From a virus (Duplodnaviria > Heunggongvirae > Uroviricota > Caudoviricetes), in the IMG/VR virus record IMGVR_UViG_2526164601_000022: a stretch of 17,593 nucleotides of DNA. One strand, 5' to 3'. A model generated the notes under the pieces. That model saw only the letters and a program-made list of their open reading frames with translations, searched no databases and was not told the origin of the DNA. The position numbers and the translations under genes were made by a program. Below, one piece after another: positions 4,851-17,593 of this stretch. The stretch's first letter is position 1; every line of letters begins with the position of its first letter.

Positions 4851-5234
4851 ATGGCAACAAAAGAAGAAAATCAGAAACATCTTCGTCAACTGGCTGGCCT
4901 GCTGGGGCGCGAGGCGGATATGTCGGGGAGTGCTGCGGATATTGCGCAACGTGTGTCTGAGTGGGAAGAGGAGCTTGCTGCTTCCCGGGAGGGCATTATG
5001 CCTGGTGATGAGAGCGGGCCTGAGCAAAATCACACAGACGATGGTGAGCAGTTGCACAACACTGATGCTACGGATGATGTTAAAGCGGTCCGTGTGCGGA
5101 AATGCCTGCATGTGATGGGGTATTGCCCGGAGACAGGCCGTCCCGTTGAACTGACGTACCGGGGCATGCGTGTTCTGGTGCCATCACCACTGGCGACAGC
5201 CATGATACAGCACGGAACGGCTGAGCATGCGTGA
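4851..5234 (+). CDS. FI: DNA-packaging/head assembly protein gpFI
   Basis: N-terminus MATKEENQKHLRQLAGLL...AQRVSEWEEEL aligns with recalled lambda FI (MTKDELIARLRSLGEQL...ALRVAELKEEL). ATG 4851 preferred over the upstream GTG 4803 of the ORF track. Confidence 0.75.
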   Translation: MATKEENQKHLRQLAGLLGREADMSGSAADIAQRVSEWEEELAASREGIMPGDESGPEQNHTDDGEQLHNTDATDDVKAVRVRKCLHVMGYCPETGRPVELTYRGMRVLVPSPLATAMIQHGTAEHA

Positions 5235-5433
5235 TTTTCAGAATGCCTTTGATGCTGCCCTTGCCGGGGTGGACAGCACGATTGTTGAAGTGATGGGGCT
5301 CTGTGCGCAGTTCACCTCGGGGGCACAGTGTGGCAGCGAAGTTCAGGGGGTTTTTGACGATCCGGAGTCGCTGGGGTTTGCCGGTAGCGGGGTCCGTATT
5401 GAAGGAAGCTGCCCGTCATTATTTAACTGGTAA
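5227..5433 (+). pseudogene. FII: Head-tail connector gpFII, C-terminally truncated (about 66 homologous codons, then NW-stop)
   Basis: MRDFQNAFDAALAGVDSTIVEVMG...GVFDDPESLGFAGSGVRIEGSCPSLF matches the first ~66 residues of recalled lambda FII (117 aa); reading frame ends at TAA 5431-5433 where homology stops. Confidence 0.7.
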
Positions 5434-5801
5434 AGGAACGGTCCAGACTGAAACGGGCCACGGTCAGAAATCCGAATGCCAGAATTATCGTTAACCGCGG
5501 TGATCTCCCGGTGATTAAGCTGGGGATCAGGATGCCGGGGCGTCGTCCGGACAGCATACTCAAAGCCGGTCAGCATCGGTATCAGCGGGCATTTATTCAG
5601 CGATTAAAAAATGGTCGCTGGCATGTCATGCAGCGTGTGGCCGGGAAAAACCGTTACCCCATTGATGTGGTGAAAATCCCGATGGCGGCCCCACTGAAAC
5701 AGGCGTTTGATGAGAATGTTGACCGTATCCGGCGTGAACGCCTGCCCGGAGAACTGGCATATGCGCTGAAACAACAACTGAGGATTGCGATAAAACGATG
5801 A
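5427..5801 (+). pseudogene. Z: Tail protein gpZ, N-terminally truncated (only the C-terminal ~124 codons remain)
   Basis: Frame-3 ORF opens right after an in-frame TAA (5424-5426): LVKERSRLKRATVRNPNARIIVNRGDLPVIKLG...QRLKNGRWHVMQRVAGKNRYPIDVVKIPMA...RIRRERLP matches the C-terminal part of recalled lambda Z (192 aa); no 5' end or SD; stop overlaps U start (ATGA). Confidence 0.65.
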
Positions 5802-6193
5802 AACATACTGATATCCGTGCTGCAGTGCTGGATGCACTGGAGCTGCATGAACACGGGGCGACGCTGTTTGATGGTCGCCCCGTTGTTTTTGACGAAGAGG
5901 ATTTTCCCGCGGTCGCGGTTTATCTGACGGATGCAGAGTATACCGGTGAAGAGCTGGATGCGGATACCTGGCGGGCCACACTGCATATTGAAGTTTTCCT
6001 GCCTGCTCAGGTGCCGGATTCAGAGCTGGATTCGTGGATGGAGTCCCGGATTTATCCGGCGATGTCCGCGATCCCTGCACTGGCAGGGATGATTACCACG
6101 ATGGTTCAGCAGGGCTATGACTATCGTCGTGATGACGATATGGCGTTATGGAGCTCTGCAGATTTGACTTATTCCATTACATACGAGATGTGA
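5798..6193 (+). CDS. U: Tail terminator protein gpU
   Basis: 131 aa, same as lambda U; [15 protein letters not shown]...[19 protein letters not shown]...[16 protein letters not shown]...[10 protein letters not shown] is near-colinear with recalled lambda U. Confidence 0.92.
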
Positions 6194-6966: not shown

Positions 6967-7398
6967 ATGTTTCTGAAAACAGAACAATTTGAATATAACG
7001 GTGTGTCTGTCACGCTTTCCGAATTGTCTGCGCTGCAGCGTATTGAGCATCTTGCCCTCCTGAAACGGCGTGCAGAACAGGCAGAATCCAGCGGCAACCT
7101 GCAGGTAAGCGTGGAAGATCTCGTCAGAACCGGCGCGTTTCTGGTGGCGATGTCCCTGTGGCATAACCATCTGCAGAAAACGGGGTCACCGTCAATGAAT
7201 GAGGCCGTGATGCAGATTGAGCAGGAAGTCCTGACCACCTGGCCTGCTGATGCCATTGCCCGGGCGGAAGACGTGGTGTTGTGCCTGTCCGGGATGATCG
7301 AAGCTGTTCGTCCGGATACTGATATTACTGAAGTGGCGAAAAATAACACGCTGACTGATGATGATTTTTCTGCGGGAAAGTCTTCGACGGCGAGCTGA
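6967..7398 (+). CDS. G: Tail assembly chaperone gpG
   Basis: 143 aa (lambda G 140); MFLKTEQFEYNGVSVTLSELSALQRIEHLALLKRRAEQAES...GAFLVAMSLWHNH matches recalled lambda G; SD GGAGG upstream. Confidence 0.9.
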   Translation: MFLKTEQFEYNGVSVTLSELSALQRIEHLALLKRRAEQAESSGNLQVSVEDLVRTGAFLVAMSLWHNHLQKTGSPSMNEAVMQIEQEVLTTWPADAIARAEDVVLCLSGMIEAVRPDTDITEVAKNNTLTDDDFSAGKSSTAS

Positions 7399-7838
7399 AC
7401 TTTGCCCTCAGACTGGCGCGAGAGATGGGGAGGCCTGACTGGCGCGCCATGCTTGCCGGGATGACATCCACCGAATATGCCGACTGGCGACATTTTTACC
7501 GCACGCATTATTTTCAGGATACCCAGCTGGATATGCATTTTTCCGGGCTGACGTACGCTGTACTCAGCCTGTTTTTTTGCGATCCGGATATGCATCCCTC
7601 TGATTTCAGTCTGCTTGTCCCCCGGCATGAGGAAGAGCAGGTGGAGAGGCCGGATGAGGACAAAATGCTGATGCAGAAAGCGGCAGGACTTGCCGGAGGC
7701 GTCCGGTTCGGTGGGGACGGAGGGCGCGATATTTTATCGTCTGCGGATGTGGCGGATGTCATGGTGGATGATGCCGCATTAATGATGGCTTCAGCGGAGA
7801 TTTCCGGAGGTGTGAGATATGTCCCAGCCGGTTGGTGA
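6967..7838 (+). CDS. G-T: Tail assembly chaperone G-T fusion made by -1 frameshift (join 6967..7380, 7380..7838)
   Basis: -1 frame after the slippery site reads VFDGELNFALRLAREMGRPDWRAMLAGMTSTEYADWRHFYRTHYF...LMQKAAGLAGGVRFG, matching recalled lambda T; has no independent start/SD context. Confidence 0.75.
7374..7380 (+). promoter_or_regulatory. Programmed -1 ribosomal frameshift slippery heptamer G GGA AAG (G to G-T recoding site)
   Basis: GGGAAAG lies in G frame as G|GGA|AAG, 6 codons before the G stop; the -1 frame is open from 7365 to 7838 and encodes the T domain. Confidence 0.75.
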
Positions 7839-10398: not shown

Positions 10399-10724
10399 AA
10401 ACATTTCGCTGGAAAGTGAAGCCGGATATGGAGGTGAACTCGCAGCCATCGGTGCGTGAAGTGCGTTTTGGTGACGGGTATTCGCAGCGTATGGCGGCGG
10501 GGCTGAATGCTGACCTGAAAACATACCGTGTGACGCTTTCCGTGACCCGGGAGGAGGCCCGACATCTGGAGGCATTCCTGGCAGAGCACGGTGGCTGGAA
10601 GGCGTTTCTGTGGACACCGCCTTATGCCTGGCGGCAGATAAAGGTGACCTGTGCCGCCTGGTCATCACGGGTTCGCATGCTGCGGGTTGAATTCAGTGCC
10701 GAGTTTAAGCAGGTGGTGAACTGA
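10395..10724 (+). CDS. M: Minor tail protein gpM
   Basis: 109 aa, same as lambda M; MKTFRWKVKP...VRFGDGYSQR...KTYRVTLSV...HGGWKAFLWTPPYAWRQIKVTCAAWSSRVRMLRVEFSAEFKQVVN matches recalled lambda M; ATGA overlap with H and L. Confidence 0.92.
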   Translation: MKTFRWKVKPDMEVNSQPSVREVRFGDGYSQRMAAGLNADLKTYRVTLSVTREEARHLEAFLAEHGGWKAFLWTPPYAWRQIKVTCAAWSSRVRMLRVEFSAEFKQVVN

Positions 10725-11421
10725 TGCAGGATATTCACGAAGAAAGTCTGAACGAGTCGGTTAAATCAGAGCAGTCACCGCGGGTGGTGCTCTGGGAAAT
10801 TGACCTGACGGTGCAGGGCGGTGAGCGGTATTTTTTCTGTAATGAGCTGAATGAAAAAGGGGAGGCGGTCACCTGGCAGGGGCGGCAATATCAGGTATAC
10901 CCGATTGACGGCAGTGGCTTTGAGATGAACGGGAAGGGCAGCAGTGCCCGCCCGTCGCTGACGGTGTCGAATCTGTTCGGTCTGGTCACCGGAATGGCGG
11001 AGGACCTGCAGAGCCTGGTGGGGGCCACGGTGGTCCGCCGCCGGGTGTATGCCCGTTTTCTGGATGCGGTGAATTTTGTGGCGGGCAATCCGGAAGCGGA
11101 CCCGGAGCAGGAGCTGAGCGACCGCTGGGTGGTGGAGCAGATGTCAGAGCTGACGGCCATGACAGCCTCGTTTGTGCTGGCAACACCGACGGAGACGGAC
11201 GGAGCGCTGTTTCCCGGTCGCATTATGCTGGCGAATACCTGTATGTGGACCTACCGCTCTGATGAGTGTGGTTACACGGTCCTGCGGTGGCGGATGAGTT
11301 CGATAAACCCATCACCGATATCCGTAAGGACAGATGCAGCAAGTGCATGCGCGGGTGTGAGATGCGCGGCATGGTGGCTAATTTTGGCGGTTTCCTTTCC
11401 ATTAACAAACTTTCGCAGTAA
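10724..11421 (+). pseudogene. L: Minor tail protein gpL, 1-bp frameshift near codon 185 (or assembly indel)
   Basis: Residues 1-184 match recalled lambda L (…GRIMLANTCMWTYRSDECGY); the lambda-like C-terminus GPAVADEFDKPITDIRKDRCSKCMRGCEMRGMVANFGGFLSINKLSQ-stop continues from 11278 in frame +2 relative to the start, implying one missing base at 11276-11278. The uninterrupted track ORF (to 11731) is the out-of-frame readthrough. Confidence 0.75.
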
Positions 11422-11426
11422 ATCCA

Positions 11427-12170
11427 ATGACACAGACAGAATCAGCGATTCTGGCGCATGCCCGGCGGTGTGCGCCTGCGGAGTCGTGCGGCTTCGTGGT
11501 GAGAACGCCGGAGGGGGAGCGGTATATCCCTTGTGTGAATATCTCTGCAGAGCCGGAGGCGTATTTTCGTATTGCACCGGAAGACTGGCTGCGGGCAGAG
11601 ATGCAGGGGGAGATTGTGACACTGGTCCACAGTCATCCCGGTGGTCTGCCCTGGCTGAGCGAGGCCGACCGGCGGCTGCAGATAAAAAGTGCACTGTCCT
11701 GGTGGCTGGTCTGCCGGGGGGAAATTCATAAATTCCGCTGTGTGCCACATCTGACAGGACGGCGCTTTGAGCACGGGGTGACGGACTGTTACACGCTGTT
11801 CCGGGATGCCTACCATCTGGCGGGAATTGATATGCCGGATTTTGAGCGTGAGGATGACTGGTGGCGCAACGGTCAGAACCTTTACCTGGACAATATGGAG
11901 GCGACTGGTTTTTACAGGATTTCCCTGCCTTCCGCACAGCCTGGCGATATCCTGCTGTGCTGCTTTGGCGCATCGGTGGCCAATCATGCCGCCATATACT
12001 GCGGCAACGGTGAACTGCTTCACCATCTGCCTGAACAACTGAGTAAACGGGAGAGGTATTCCGAAAAATGGCAACGACGAACGCATTCAGCCTGGCGTCA
12101 CCGCCACTGGCACGTATCTGCCTTCACGGGGATTTACAACGATTTGGCCGCCGCCTCAGCCTGTATGTGA
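11427..12170 (+). CDS. K: Tail tip assembly protein gpK (JAB/MPN metalloprotease + NlpC/P60 domains)
   Basis: 247 aa; JAMM motif HSHPGGLPWLSEAD (HxHx7SxxD); C-terminal Cys/His region (GVTDCYTLF...NHAAIYCG...HH) consistent with NlpC/P60; 103-nt overlap with I as in lambda. Confidence 0.88.
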   Translation: MTQTESAILAHARRCAPAESCGFVVRTPEGERYIPCVNISAEPEAYFRIAPEDWLRAEMQGEIVTLVHSHPGGLPWLSEADRRLQIKSALSWWLVCRGEIHKFRCVPHLTGRRFEHGVTDCYTLFRDAYHLAGIDMPDFEREDDWWRNGQNLYLDNMEATGFYRISLPSAQPGDILLCCFGASVANHAAIYCGNGELLHHLPEQLSKRERYSEKWQRRTHSAWRHRHWHVSAFTGIYNDLAAASACM

Positions 12171-12901: not shown

Positions 12902-12929
12902 GGAATAAAGGTAAGGGCCCGCCCTTACC
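12902..12929 (-). terminator. Candidate intrinsic terminator of sodC
   Basis: Perfect 9-bp inverted repeat GGTAAGGGC (12910-12918) / GCCCTTACC (12921-12929), 2-nt spacer; on the - strand followed by UUUAUUCC; 8 nt downstream of the sodC stop. Confidence 0.45.
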
Positions 12930-12936
12930 TGACTGA

Positions 12937-13464
12937 TTATTGAATGATGCCGCAGGCCATTCTCGCACCACCACCGCCCAGGGGCTCCGGATGGTCATGA
13001 TGGTTATCACCGCCAGCATGAAGCATGAGAGAACGCCCTTTAATCTCTTTTAATGAGTTCAGTCTCGGGGCCAGGACCGGGTAGTTCGCTTTTCCGTCAT
13101 GCGTCACGAACAGCGCAGGGAGGTCGCCCAGGTGTCCATCCGGAGACCAGGGGCCAAGATGTTTGCCGGTGTTTTTCGGGTCAAAGTGACCGCCAGCCGA
13201 TAATGCTGCGACCGGTTTTCCGTCTTTCAGTGCCGGGGCGCAATTTCCTTTTTCGTGCACATGAAAACCATGAATGCCTTCAGACAGAGAGTGAAGGGCT
13301 GGTGTGAACAGCAGACCGTAGGGGGTCTCCTGAATGGTTATTTTTCCAATGCTGACTTCTTTTCCGTCAGCACTGACAAGGTTCATTGGGACTTCCTGTT
13401 CTGCTGCGTATCCGCATGATGCTGCTGTCAGCATGGCAATGGCAGCAATGATTTTACATTTCAT
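12937..13464 (-). CDS. sodC: Periplasmic Cu,Zn superoxide dismutase (prophage cargo/moron)
   Basis: 175 aa from ATG at 13464-13462 with SD GAGGG 6 nt upstream; signal peptide [20 protein letters not shown]; Cu/Zn-SOD motifs [47 protein letters not shown]. The 344-aa track ORF is an upstream over-extension. Confidence 0.9.
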
Positions 13465-13597: not shown

Positions 13598-16500
13598 ATG
13601 GGTAAAGGTGGCGGCAGGGCGCACACACCTCGTGAGGCGAAGGACAATCTCAAATCCACGCAGATGATGAGCGTGATTGACGCCATTGGTGAAGGGCCGA
13701 TTGAAGGTCCGGTGAAGGGGCTGCAGAGTATCCTGGTGAACAAAACCCCGCTGACGGACACGGACGGTAATCCTGTGATACATGGTGTGACCGCGGTCTG
13801 GCGCGCCGGGGAGCAGGAGCAGACACCACCTGAAGGCTTTGAGTCCTCCGGGGCGGAAACCGCACTGGGCGTGGAAGTGACGAAGGCAAAGCCGGTGACG
13901 CGCACCATTACATCCGCGAACATTGACCGCCTGCGGGTCACCTTCGGGGTGCAGTCACTGGTGCAGACCACGTCAAAGGGTGACCGAAACCCGACATCCG
14001 TCCGACTGCTGATTCAGTTACAGCGTAACGGTAACTGGGTGACGGAAAAGGATGTCACCATTAACGGCAAGACCACCTCGCAGTTTCTGGCGTCGGTGAT
14101 TCTGGATAATCTGCCTGAGCGGCCCTTTAACATCCGGATGGTCCGGGAGACAGCGGACAGCACCTCGGACCAGCTGCAGAATAAGACGCTCTGGTCGTCA
14201 TACACCGAAATCATCGATGTGAAACAGTGCTACCCGAACACGGCGATTGTGGGGCTGCAGGTGGATGCGGAGCAGTTCGGCGGCCAGCAGATGACGGTGA
14301 ACTACCATATCCGCGGTCGCATCATCCAGGTGCCGTCAAACTATGACCCGGAAAAACGCACGTACAGTGGTATCTGGGACGGCAGTCTGAAACCGGCATA
14401 CAGCAACAACCCGGCCTGGTGTCTGTGGGACATGCTGACTCACCCGCGCTACGGCATGGGAAAACGTCTGGGGGCGGCGGATGTGGACAAGTGGGCGCTG
14501 TATGCCATCGGGCAGTACTGCGACCAGACGGTCCCGGATGGTTTCGGGGGGACCGAGCCGCGGATGACCTTTAATGCGTACCTGGCACAACAGCGTAAGG
14601 CGTGGGACGTTCTCAGTGATTTCTGCTCTGCGATGCGCTGTATGCCGGTATGGAACGGTCAGACGCTGACGTTCGTTCAGGACCGCCCGTCGGATGTGGT
14701 GTGGCCGTACACCAACAGCGATGTGGTGGTGGATGATAACGGCGTGGGATTCCGCTACAGCTTCAGTGCCCTGAAGGACCGGCACACGGCGGTGGAGGTG
14801 AATTACACCGACCCGCAGAACGGCTGGCAGACCTCCACGGAACTGGTGGAAGACCCGGAAGCCATACTGCGCTACGGACGCAACCTGCTGAAGATGGACG
14901 CGTTCGGCTGTACCAGCCGCGGTCAGGCCCACCGTGCCGGACTGTGGGTGATAAAGACCGAACTGCTGGAAACGCAGACGGTGGATTTCACGCTCGGGTC
15001 TCAGGGGCTGCGGCACACACCCGGTGACATTATTGAAATCTGTGATAATGACTATGCCGGGACCCTGACCGGCGGACGTGTCCTGTCCATTGATGCTGCC
15101 ACCCGCACCCTGACGCTGGACCGTGAGGTGACCCTGCCGGAGACAGGTGCCGCCACGGTGAACCTGATTAACGGCAGCGGTAAGCCGGTGAGTGTGGCCA
15201 TCACTGCACACCCCGCGCCGGACCGGATACAGGTCAGCACCCTGCCTGATGGTGTGGAGACATACGGTGTATGGGGACTCTCCCTGCCGTCACTGCGTCG
15301 TCGCCTGTTCCGCTGTGTCTCCATCCGGGAAAACACGGACGGCACCTTTGCCATCACGGCGGTGCAGCACGTACCGGAAAAGAAGCCATCGTGGATAACG
15401 GGGCCAGCTTTGAGCCGCAGTCAGGCACCCTGAACAGCGTTATTCCACCGGCAGTGCAGCACCTGACGGTGGAGGTGAGCGCGGCTGACGGTCAGTATCT
15501 GGCACAGGCGAAATGGGACACGCCGCGGGTGGTGAAGGGTGTGCGCTTCAGTCTGCGCCTGACCAGCGGAAGCGGAGAAGACAGCCGTCTGGTGACCACC
15601 GCCATCACTGCGGATACAGAGCATCGTTTCAGTGGTCTGCCGCTCGGGGAATACACCCTGACAGTCAGGGCAATTAACAGTTATGGCCAGCAGGGGAACC
15701 GGCCACCACCACGTTCAGGATTAATGCACCTGCGGTACCGCCACGATTGAGCTGACACCGGGCTATTTTCAGATAACAGCGGTCCCGCGTCTTGCGGTGT
15801 ATGACCCGACGGTACAGTTTGAGTTCTGGTTTTCGGAGGCAAAAATCGCAGACATATCTCAGGTGGAAACCTCTGCCCGTTATCTGGGGACCGGCAGTCA
15901 GTGGAGTGTATCCGGCCCGCACATTAAGCCCGGGAAGGATTTCTGGTTTTACGTGCGCAGCGTCAACCTGGTGGGGAAATCTGCTTTTGTGGAAGCCAGT
16001 GGCCGGGCCAGCAATGATGCAGAAGGGTATCTGGGACTGTTTCGGGAAAAAATAGGAAAACTGCATCTGGCTCAGGGGCTGTGGGAGCTGATAGACAACA
16101 GCCAGCTTGCGGATGAGATGGCGGAGATGAAGACCACCATCACCGAAACCCGCAATGAAATCACACAGACGGTCAGTAAAACGCTGGAAGACCAGAGCGC
16201 CACCATACAGCAGATACAGCGCGTGCAGAAGGACACAAATGATGACCTTGCTGCACTTTACATGCTGAAGGTACAGAAAACAAAAAATGGCATACCCTAT
16301 GTTGCCGGTATTGGAGCGGGGATTGAGGATACTGATGGCCAGCCCCTGAGCAACATACTGCTGCTGGCTGACCGTATTGCGATGATTAACCCGGAGGACG
16401 GCAACACCACGCCGTTATTTGTGGCGCAGGGGAATCAGTTGTTCATGAACGATGTGTTCCTGAAGCGGCTGTTTGCGGTGAGTATCACCTCGTCCGGCAA

Positions 16501-17069
16501 TCCCCCGACGTTTTCCCTGACGCCGGAGGGCAGGCTGACCGCAAGAAATGCTGATATCAGCGGTAACGTGAATGCGAATTCCGGGACGCTCAACAACGTC
16601 ACGATTAACGAGAACTGTCGGGTTCTGGGAAAACTGTCCGCGAACCAGATTGAAGGCGATCTCGTTAAAACAGTGGGCAAAGCTTTCCCCCGGGATTCCC
16701 GTGCACCGGAGCGGTGGCCATCAGGGACCATTACCGTCAGGGTTTATGACGATCAGCCGTTTGACCGACAAATTGTTATTCCGGCGGTGGCATTCAGCGG
16801 CGCTAAGCATGAGAGAGAGCATACTGATATTTACTCCTCATGCCGTCTGATAGTGCGGAAAAAACGGTGCTGAAATTTATAACCGTACCGCGCTGGATAA
16901 TACGCTGATTTACAGTGGCGTTATTGATATGCCTGCCGGTCACGGTCACATGACGCTGGAGTTTTCGGTATCAGCATGGCTGGTGAATAACTGGTATCCC
17001 ACAGCAAGTATCAGCGATTTGCTGGTTGTGGTGATGAAGAAAGCCACCGCAGGCATCAGTATCAGCTGA
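13598..17069 (+). pseudogene. J: Central tail fiber / host specificity protein gpJ, interrupted by four 1-bp indels (or assembly errors)
   Basis: Colinear with recalled lambda J (1132 aa) from [22 protein letters not shown] to the C-terminal ...[14 protein letters not shown]-stop (17067-17069), but homology hops frames at ~15378-15381 (A4, -1), ~15693-15696 (G4, -1), ~15744-15746 (-1) and 16859-16864 (A6, +1). SD GAGAGGAACATT before ATG 13598. Confidence 0.8.
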
Positions 17070-17136: not shown

Positions 17137-17593
17137 ATGCGTAAACTTTATGCCGCCATTTTGTCCGCAGCCATTTGTCTGGCCGTATCCGGTGCGCCTG
17201 CATGGGCGTCTGAACATCAGTCCACGCTGAGCGCGGGGTATCTTCATGTCTCGACGAACGTTCCTGGCAGCGATGAACTGAACGGGATTAACGTGAAATA
17301 CCGTTATGAGTTTACGGACACTCTGGGAATGGTGACGTCATTCAGCTATGCAGGAGACAAGAATCGCCAGCTGACCCGTTACAGCGATACCCGCTGGCAT
17401 GAAGATTCCGTGCGTAACCGCTGGTTCAGCGTGATGGCGGGGCCGTCTGTGCGCGTGAATGAATGGTTCAGCGCGTATGCGATGGCGGGTGTGGCTTACA
17501 GCCGTGTGTCGACTTTCTCCGGGGATTATCTTCGCGTAACTGACAACAAGGGGAAAACGCACGATGTGCTGACCGGAAGTGATGACGGTCGCC
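17137..17593 (+). CDS. lom: Ail/Lom-family outer membrane protein (partial; continues past window end)
   Basis: ORF open from ATG 17137 (SD GAGAGG 5 nt upstream) to window end, 152 codons; signal peptide MRKLYAAILSAAICLAVSGAPAWA; GINVKYRYEFTD, SVMAGPSVRVN, SAYAMAGVAYSR match recalled lambda Lom blocks. Absent from the ORF track because it has no in-window stop. Confidence 0.8.
   Translation, partial: MRKLYAAILSAAICLAVSGAPAWASEHQSTLSAGYLHVSTNVPGSDELNGINVKYRYEFTDTLGMVTSFSYAGDKNRQLTRYSDTRWHEDSVRNRWFSVMAGPSVRVNEWFSAYAMAGVAYSRVSTFSGDYLRVTDNKGKTHDVLTGSDDGR

Follow-up and report, generated by a model that had tools for sequence, protein, structure and literature searches.

In bacteriophage lambda, amber mutants lacking FII produce filled heads that are unable to join tails, and those lacking Z produce tails that give rise to non-infectious particles. 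In the lambda virion, gpFII assembles into a ring of six subunits, the 'stopper', which sits between the adaptor gpW and the tail terminator gpU (PMC10721106). The protein is built from a helix (residues 4-24), a beta-sandwich (formed by residues 25-41 plus 63-107) and a hairpin (residues 46-62), while its C-terminal loop (residues 108-117) contacts gpU (PMC10721106). Lesions in morphogenesis genes are already known from the lambdoid prophages of EHEC and EPEC, where they are common. Most of the prophages Sp3-Sp15 of O157:H7 Sakai carry deletions, frameshifts or IS insertions in such genes, and only 3 of the 10 lambda-like prophages retain all morphogenetic genes (Asadulghani et al. 2009, PMC2669165). 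According to the same study, interactions between prophages nevertheless allow many of the defective ones to be induced and packaged, and in some cases transferred (PMC2669165).

The locus described here lies in the late operon of a lambda-like prophage of Escherichia coli DEC9E and affects the same two genes as the lambda mutants, at the same operon position (FI-FII-Z-U). The phenotype would be expected to be the same. Unlike the lambda mutations, which were engineered or selected in the laboratory, the lesion is a single 327-bp deletion that hits both genes at once, and it lies in a prophage residing in a pathogenic strain from the wild. The Sakai prophages are comparable in being lambda-like, in carrying virulence cargo and in residing in a polylysogen where other prophages can complement or recombine. 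They differ in their host, which is O157:H7 rather than the O26:H11 atypical EPEC considered here, and this particular FII-Z deletion is not among the lesions noted in the Sakai study (PMC2669165). Furthermore, induction and packaging were measured in Sakai, whereas the DEC9E prophage is known as a sequence. Much closer counterparts are the sister prophages of B1_2 (NZ_CP074764.1), DEC9B (NZ_CP074760.1) and AUSMDU00014361 (NZ_CP045827.1), which have 98.3-98.6% identity over 17.6 kb, the same gene order and FI-U flanks that are 100% identical to the DEC9E contig. The isolated PhiR12 phages (PV340549 and others) are 94% identical in this region. In contrast to DEC9E, the sister prophages and the PhiR12 phages all possess the 327 bp, and their FII, Z, L and J genes are uninterrupted.

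The stretch of DNA analysed (the window, 17,593 nucleotides) was identified by exact-protein matching as the whole of contig AIGO01000013.1 (17,593 bp) in assembly GCA_000249975.2 of E. coli DEC9E. This strain (AIGO00000000) is O26:H11, stx-negative and of ST29, originates from Mexico in 1986, and was sequenced as a draft by Hazen et al. in 2012 (Table 1, PMC5592225), the only form in which its genome is known. Eighteen prophage regions have been predicted in it (PMC5592225). An ORF map and gene-by-gene tblastn against an annotated relative show that the contig holds the late genes, for head and tail, of a lambda-like prophage that carries sodC. Their order is W-B(portal)-C-D-E-FI-FII-Z-U-V-G-T-H-M-L-K-I, followed by a minus-strand sodC, by J and by the first part of lom. 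At its 5′ end (1-55) the contig has the final codons of the gene for the large terminase, and its 3′ end (17137-17593) lies inside lom, so that it breaks at sequences repeated among the many lambdoid prophages of the strain; it includes neither an attachment site nor a chromosomal flank. Gene-by-gene tblastn finds truncations in FII and Z and frameshifts in L and J, with the remaining genes intact. A lambda-type late gene order in which at least one essential morphogenesis gene is disrupted is characteristic of a defective (cryptic) lambdoid prophage, and the contig shows this combination.

Alignment with the intact relative from AUSMDU00014361 (segment L001, NZ_CP045827.1) reveals one clean gap of 327 nt with both flanks 100% identical. 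The deletion junction falls between positions 5424 and 5425 of the window and has 0 nt of microhomology. Since no bases are common to its two sides, the breakpoint is unambiguous; the junction is moreover a direct result of alignment and not a statistical signal. From the annotated CDS limits, FII has lost 156 nt, corresponding to codons 67-117 and the stop. A further 14 nt are missing from the FII-Z spacer, where the ribosome-binding site of Z should lie, and 157 nt are missing from Z (codons 1-52 plus 1 nt). The join creates a TAA in the Z frame (5424-5426), composed of the T of FII codon 66 and the leftover AA of Z codon 53. The breakpoints (L001 positions 2126 and 2452) are bracketed by none of the eight families of direct repeats that the intact segment contains, nor by any of its short inverted repeats. 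With neither microhomology nor a bracketing repeat, slipped mispairing, recombination between short direct repeats and hairpin-mediated loss are rejected as routes to the deletion. No new terminator was found at the junction. A sigma-70-like match does run across it on the minus strand (5445-5418; TGGACC, a 16-nt spacer and AATAAT; 9/12 positions), at a level expected by chance (1 found, 0.5 expected).

Upstream of the junction, the truncated head-tail joining (stopper) gene, FII′, extends from 5227 to 5433 on the plus strand. It comprises 66 FII codons (5227-5424), an out-of-frame Asn-Trp and a TAA at 5431-5433, and is translated as MRDF...EGSCPSLF followed by N, W and the stop. The FII start is overlapped by the 3′ end of the intact DNA-packaging gene FI (4851-5234, plus strand), which matches residues 1-127 at 100% identity by tblastn and belongs to Pfam PF14000. 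The FII′ product is 100% identical to residues 1-66 of the 117 residues of WP_001204560.1 (tblastn), an intact homologue that itself aligns over residues 1-117 with lambda gpFII (PDB 1K0H, E=1.7e-51). Against Pfam PF05354 (Phage_attach) it covers profile positions 3-58 of 99 and scores 20.1 bits, below the cut-off of 26. Homology to gpFII is thus evident, and the complete fold, with its sandwich, gpU loop and length of about 117 aa, is absent. Because only residues 1-66 are retained, most of the beta-sandwich and the whole C-terminal loop are gone. Judging from these comparisons, FII′ is a gene remnant (pseudogene) of the ordinary gpFII family and not a functional member of it.

Downstream of the junction, the remnant of the tail-completion gene, Z′, spans 5427-5801 on the plus strand and encodes residues 54-177, its native start codon and ribosome-binding site having been lost. 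In the Z frame the sequence reads II*LVKERSRLKRATV..., the asterisk being the TAA at 5424-5426, and is then open to the Z stop at 5799-5801. The earliest in-frame starts are a GTG at 5511 (96 aa) and an ATG at 5532 (89 aa), the second of which begins the 89-aa ORF called as the Z′ gene in a public gene index. Z′ is 100% identical to residues 54-177 of WP_000975031.1 (tblastn) and matches profile positions 52-190 of 190 in Pfam PF06763 (Minor_tail_Z; E=7e-41). The homology to gpZ is therefore clear, and what is absent is a complete reading frame that begins immediately after FII with a start codon and ribosome-binding site of its own. No solved gpZ structure was found by sequence search. Z′ is a pseudogene of the ordinary gpZ family. 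Production of an FII′-Z′ fusion through programmed frameshifting is ruled out, as the TAA at 5424-5426 stands in the -1 frame and 5427-5433 contain no slippery heptamer.

These results bear out most of an initial annotation of the window, made from the letters alone, that had proposed a deletion fusing a truncated FII to a truncated Z. Its estimate of 0.3-0.4 kb of missing DNA agrees with the 327 bp obtained by alignment with intact relatives, and its loss of about 50 C-terminal FII codons agrees with the absence of codons 67-117. Translation of 5227-5433 reproduces the FII end that it described, ...GSCPSLF with a stop two codons later at 5431-5433. Translation likewise confirms Z homology in another frame right after the TAA at 5424-5426, as well as the claim that Z has no start until an internal GTG or ATG (5511 and 5532). 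The proposed loss of about 65 N-terminal Z codons was too high: 53 residues are missing, whether the comparison is made with the 177-aa Z of close relatives or with the 192-aa Z of phage 21.

The tail terminator gene U, which follows Z′ (5798-6193, plus strand), is intact and matches residues 1-131 at 100% identity by tblastn. Its ATG overlaps the Z stop (ATGA, 5798-5801). This arrangement suggests that translation of U may normally be coupled to that of Z, in which case it might be reduced here.

The distribution of the junction was surveyed with junction-specific queries (a 44-mer, a 40-mer and a 23-mer), the centred 44-mer matching only if the join is present. The 44-mer gave no match in 5,426 complete E. 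coli genomes or in 50,697 phage records, and no exact junction string occurs in the GTDB species representatives, IMG/VR or the JGI metagenomes. In an index of 153 billion gene positions, the exact 68-aa product of FII′ occurs on one contig only. No second assembly or read-derived contig was found with the exact FII′, L or G protein; the source contig alone was matched. When a 111-nt query spanning the junction was used, all 30 of the 30 best listed matches had the intact form and aligned as two blocks separated by 327 nt. The 1.4 kb surrounding the junction is 100% identical to eight complete E. coli genomes, where it occupies 1,728 bp and aligns in two pieces. Full-length genes are also found in isolated phages, with FII of 117 aa and Z of 177 aa in PhiR12_1 (host K-12), and FII of 117 aa and Z of 192 aa in phage 21. 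The absence of the junction everywhere searched and the restriction of FII′ to one contig fit a recent private event. It is therefore probable that the late operon of DEC9E has undergone a genuine, recent 327-bp deletion that is private to this strain and arose by illegitimate, repeat-independent end joining. The deletion would then be present in the cells and not just in the assembly.

An artefact of assembly or consensus calling is unlikely, though not so unlikely as to be set aside lightly. Under this explanation, FII-Z is intact in DEC9E, and reads from near-identical lambdoid prophages were collapsed into one draft contig. In line with such a collapse, FI-U-like regions number 6 in the sister strain DEC9B, and related strains have 6-8 paralogous copies per genome. 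The contig is short (17.6 kb) and ends within the repeated terminase and lom sequences, and its FII-Z junction appears in no other sequence searched, as an artefact would predict. A frameshift in cas3 of DEC9E was earlier suspected to be a sequencing or assembly error (PMC5592225). The contig also carries five private 1-nt indels that are error-like, three of them at homopolymers, together with unique mosaic alleles in G and L. These five other frame-breaking changes in a draft contig cast doubt on its quality and make the deletion less certain.

The first of the five indels is a frameshift in L at residue 185/186 (11276-11282, plus strand), where a deficit of 1 nt sits in a scrambled stretch. 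It yields a 335-aa ORF (10724-11731) that overruns the K start. This L allele is private, the best complete genome being 97.7% identical and the exact 335-aa protein occurring on this contig only. The tail tip gene J (13598-17069, plus strand) is broken, by comparison with relatives, by four 1-nt indels between 15378 and 16859. They are located at 15378 (A5 to A4), 15696, 15738 (C3 to C2) and 16859 (A5 to A6), with 3/4 at homopolymer sites; the changes in both L and J were scored relative to nine relatives. Over J 15340-15780, the best of 2,358 records differs from the contig by three gaps only (444 versus 441 nt) and 0 substitutions, and indels without substitutions are likewise seen relative to dozens of complete genomes. 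Such a pattern points to homopolymer sequencing error or, alternatively, to decay of very recent date.

Eleven substitutions are clustered towards the 3′ end of G (7272-7348), and 0/9 of the relatives compared share this cluster. Over 7180-7420, identity to the closest complete E. coli genome is 97.9%, and the exact gpG protein is encoded on this contig only. The cluster represents either a natural mosaic allele or the consensus of a collapsed repeat. The divergent E allele of the contig is 99.9-100% identical to that of natural prophages having the same FII-Z flanks, such as those of strains C7 and 12A. The idea that a chimeric contig accounts for the best identity of only 98.6% is unsupported, since the E allele co-occurs naturally with these flanks. 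The mosaicism is thus at least partly natural.

Pseudogenes are also annotated in members of this prophage family from two complete genomes, namely L, K, I and J in the homologous prophage of UTME-9 (L010 11151-17512), and FII, T and sodC in that of 14EC047 (L013 5660-6012, 8227-8639 and 13740-14266). Frameshift calls are therefore common in the family, whether real or derived from sequencing.

Whatever the origin of the small indels, several properties of the FII-Z junction itself argue against its being an artefact. Homopolymer miscalls cannot produce a loss of 327 bp. Neither shared bases nor a repeat exists at the junction to lead an overlap or de Bruijn assembler astray, so that spanning reads would have been needed to build it. 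In addition, apart from the gap, the 1.4 kb on either side taken together matches eight complete genomes at 100% identity, which indicates a clean local consensus. More generally, private indels in draft contigs of polylysogenic E. coli should not be taken as biology without read checks.

Taken as a genuine deletion, the lesion is most likely an ordinary loss-of-function event, private to one strain, in a defective prophage. Both FII and Z are almost certainly null, a prediction that follows from the extent of the lost sequence and the known roles of gpFII and gpZ. Illegitimate end joining would have removed FII codons 67-117, the FII-Z spacer and Z codons 1-53. The prophage alone should still be capable of building DNA-filled heads, as W, B, C, D, E and FI are intact. 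These heads would lack the gpFII hexamer, the docking site for tails, and the tails would lack the completion protein gpZ. No infectious particles would be expected unless co-resident lambdoid prophages provide FII and Z in trans or recombination repairs the locus. With 6 FI-U regions in DEC9B and up to 8 in relatives, such trans-complementation is conceivable. L and J are also frameshifted on the contig, and failure of assembly would therefore be over-determined; if all of the lesions are real, the FII-Z deletion is just one of several blocks to virion formation.

The deletion marks the DEC9E prophage as non-autonomous, and the 327-bp size difference constitutes a strain-specific PCR marker. 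As it is already established what gpFII and gpZ do and how often EHEC/EPEC prophages carry defects of this type, the locus raises no new question of phage assembly. The initial annotation had concluded that both genes are inactive, which is supported by an FII′ devoid of most of its fold and a Z′ devoid of its start. Its further expectation that virion assembly should fail holds for the prophage alone and does not hold as a general claim, given that co-resident prophages could supply FII and Z. It had also reasoned that virion-forming relatives with the same short FII and Z would speak against inactivation; the junction occurs in no phage record or complete E. coli genome of those searched.

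Two further readings accept the deletion as real and assign a role to the disabled prophage. One holds that the prophage still spreads by using the FII, Z, L and J of co-resident lambdoid prophages of the O26:H11 host, so that it would depend on helpers while mobilizing sodC and cargo close by; this is improbable. The other, a sub-case of the genuine deletion with an adaptive twist, proposes that the deletion has been kept because disabled assembly holds the cargo (sodC and lom) in the chromosome. In keeping with selection of this kind, the lesions fall in structural genes whereas the cargo gene sodC is undamaged (100% identity), and T3SS effector genes (NleG, NleB2 or EspK) neighbour the tail genes of homologous prophages in relatives. 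The lesion is, however, a singleton, absent from the indexed proteins of the sister DEC9 strains and from the 5,426 complete genomes, and hence gives no sign of spread or recurrence. Neutral decay explains the same facts equally well, and a block to assembly prevents neither excision nor killing of the host upon induction. Selective retention is accordingly a very remote prospect. That some lambdoid phages naturally build functional virions from an FII of 66 aa and a Z shortened at its N-terminus is next to inconceivable: no support for it was found, the junction is in no phage record and no complete genome searched, FII is 117 aa and Z 177-192 aa long in every close relative, among them phages grown on K-12 or E. 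coli C, and FII′ is missing most of the beta-sandwich and Z′ the start codon and ribosome-binding site at the natural position.

Several minor features of the prophage and its relatives may be recorded alongside the private deletion. In E. coli C7 (NZ_CP010240.1), a second lambdoid late region, in inverted orientation, adjoins the homologous prophage head to head (L011 18197-20834). The join lies inside the tape-measure gene H and leaves two partial tape-measure genes on opposite strands, an inter-prophage rearrangement. On the DEC9E contig, the Cu/Zn superoxide dismutase gene sodC (12937-13464, minus strand) is intact, with 100% identity, and lies between I and J, both tail genes. Beyond it comes a GC-rich hairpin (ggtaagggcccgcccttacc) at about 12908-12930, and sodC cargo is found at the same position in many EHEC/EPEC prophages. 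Finally, an intact slippery heptamer, GGGAAAG, is located at 7374-7380, where G (6967-7398) is about to end and where a -1 programmed frameshift of the lambda G/GT type would be expected.
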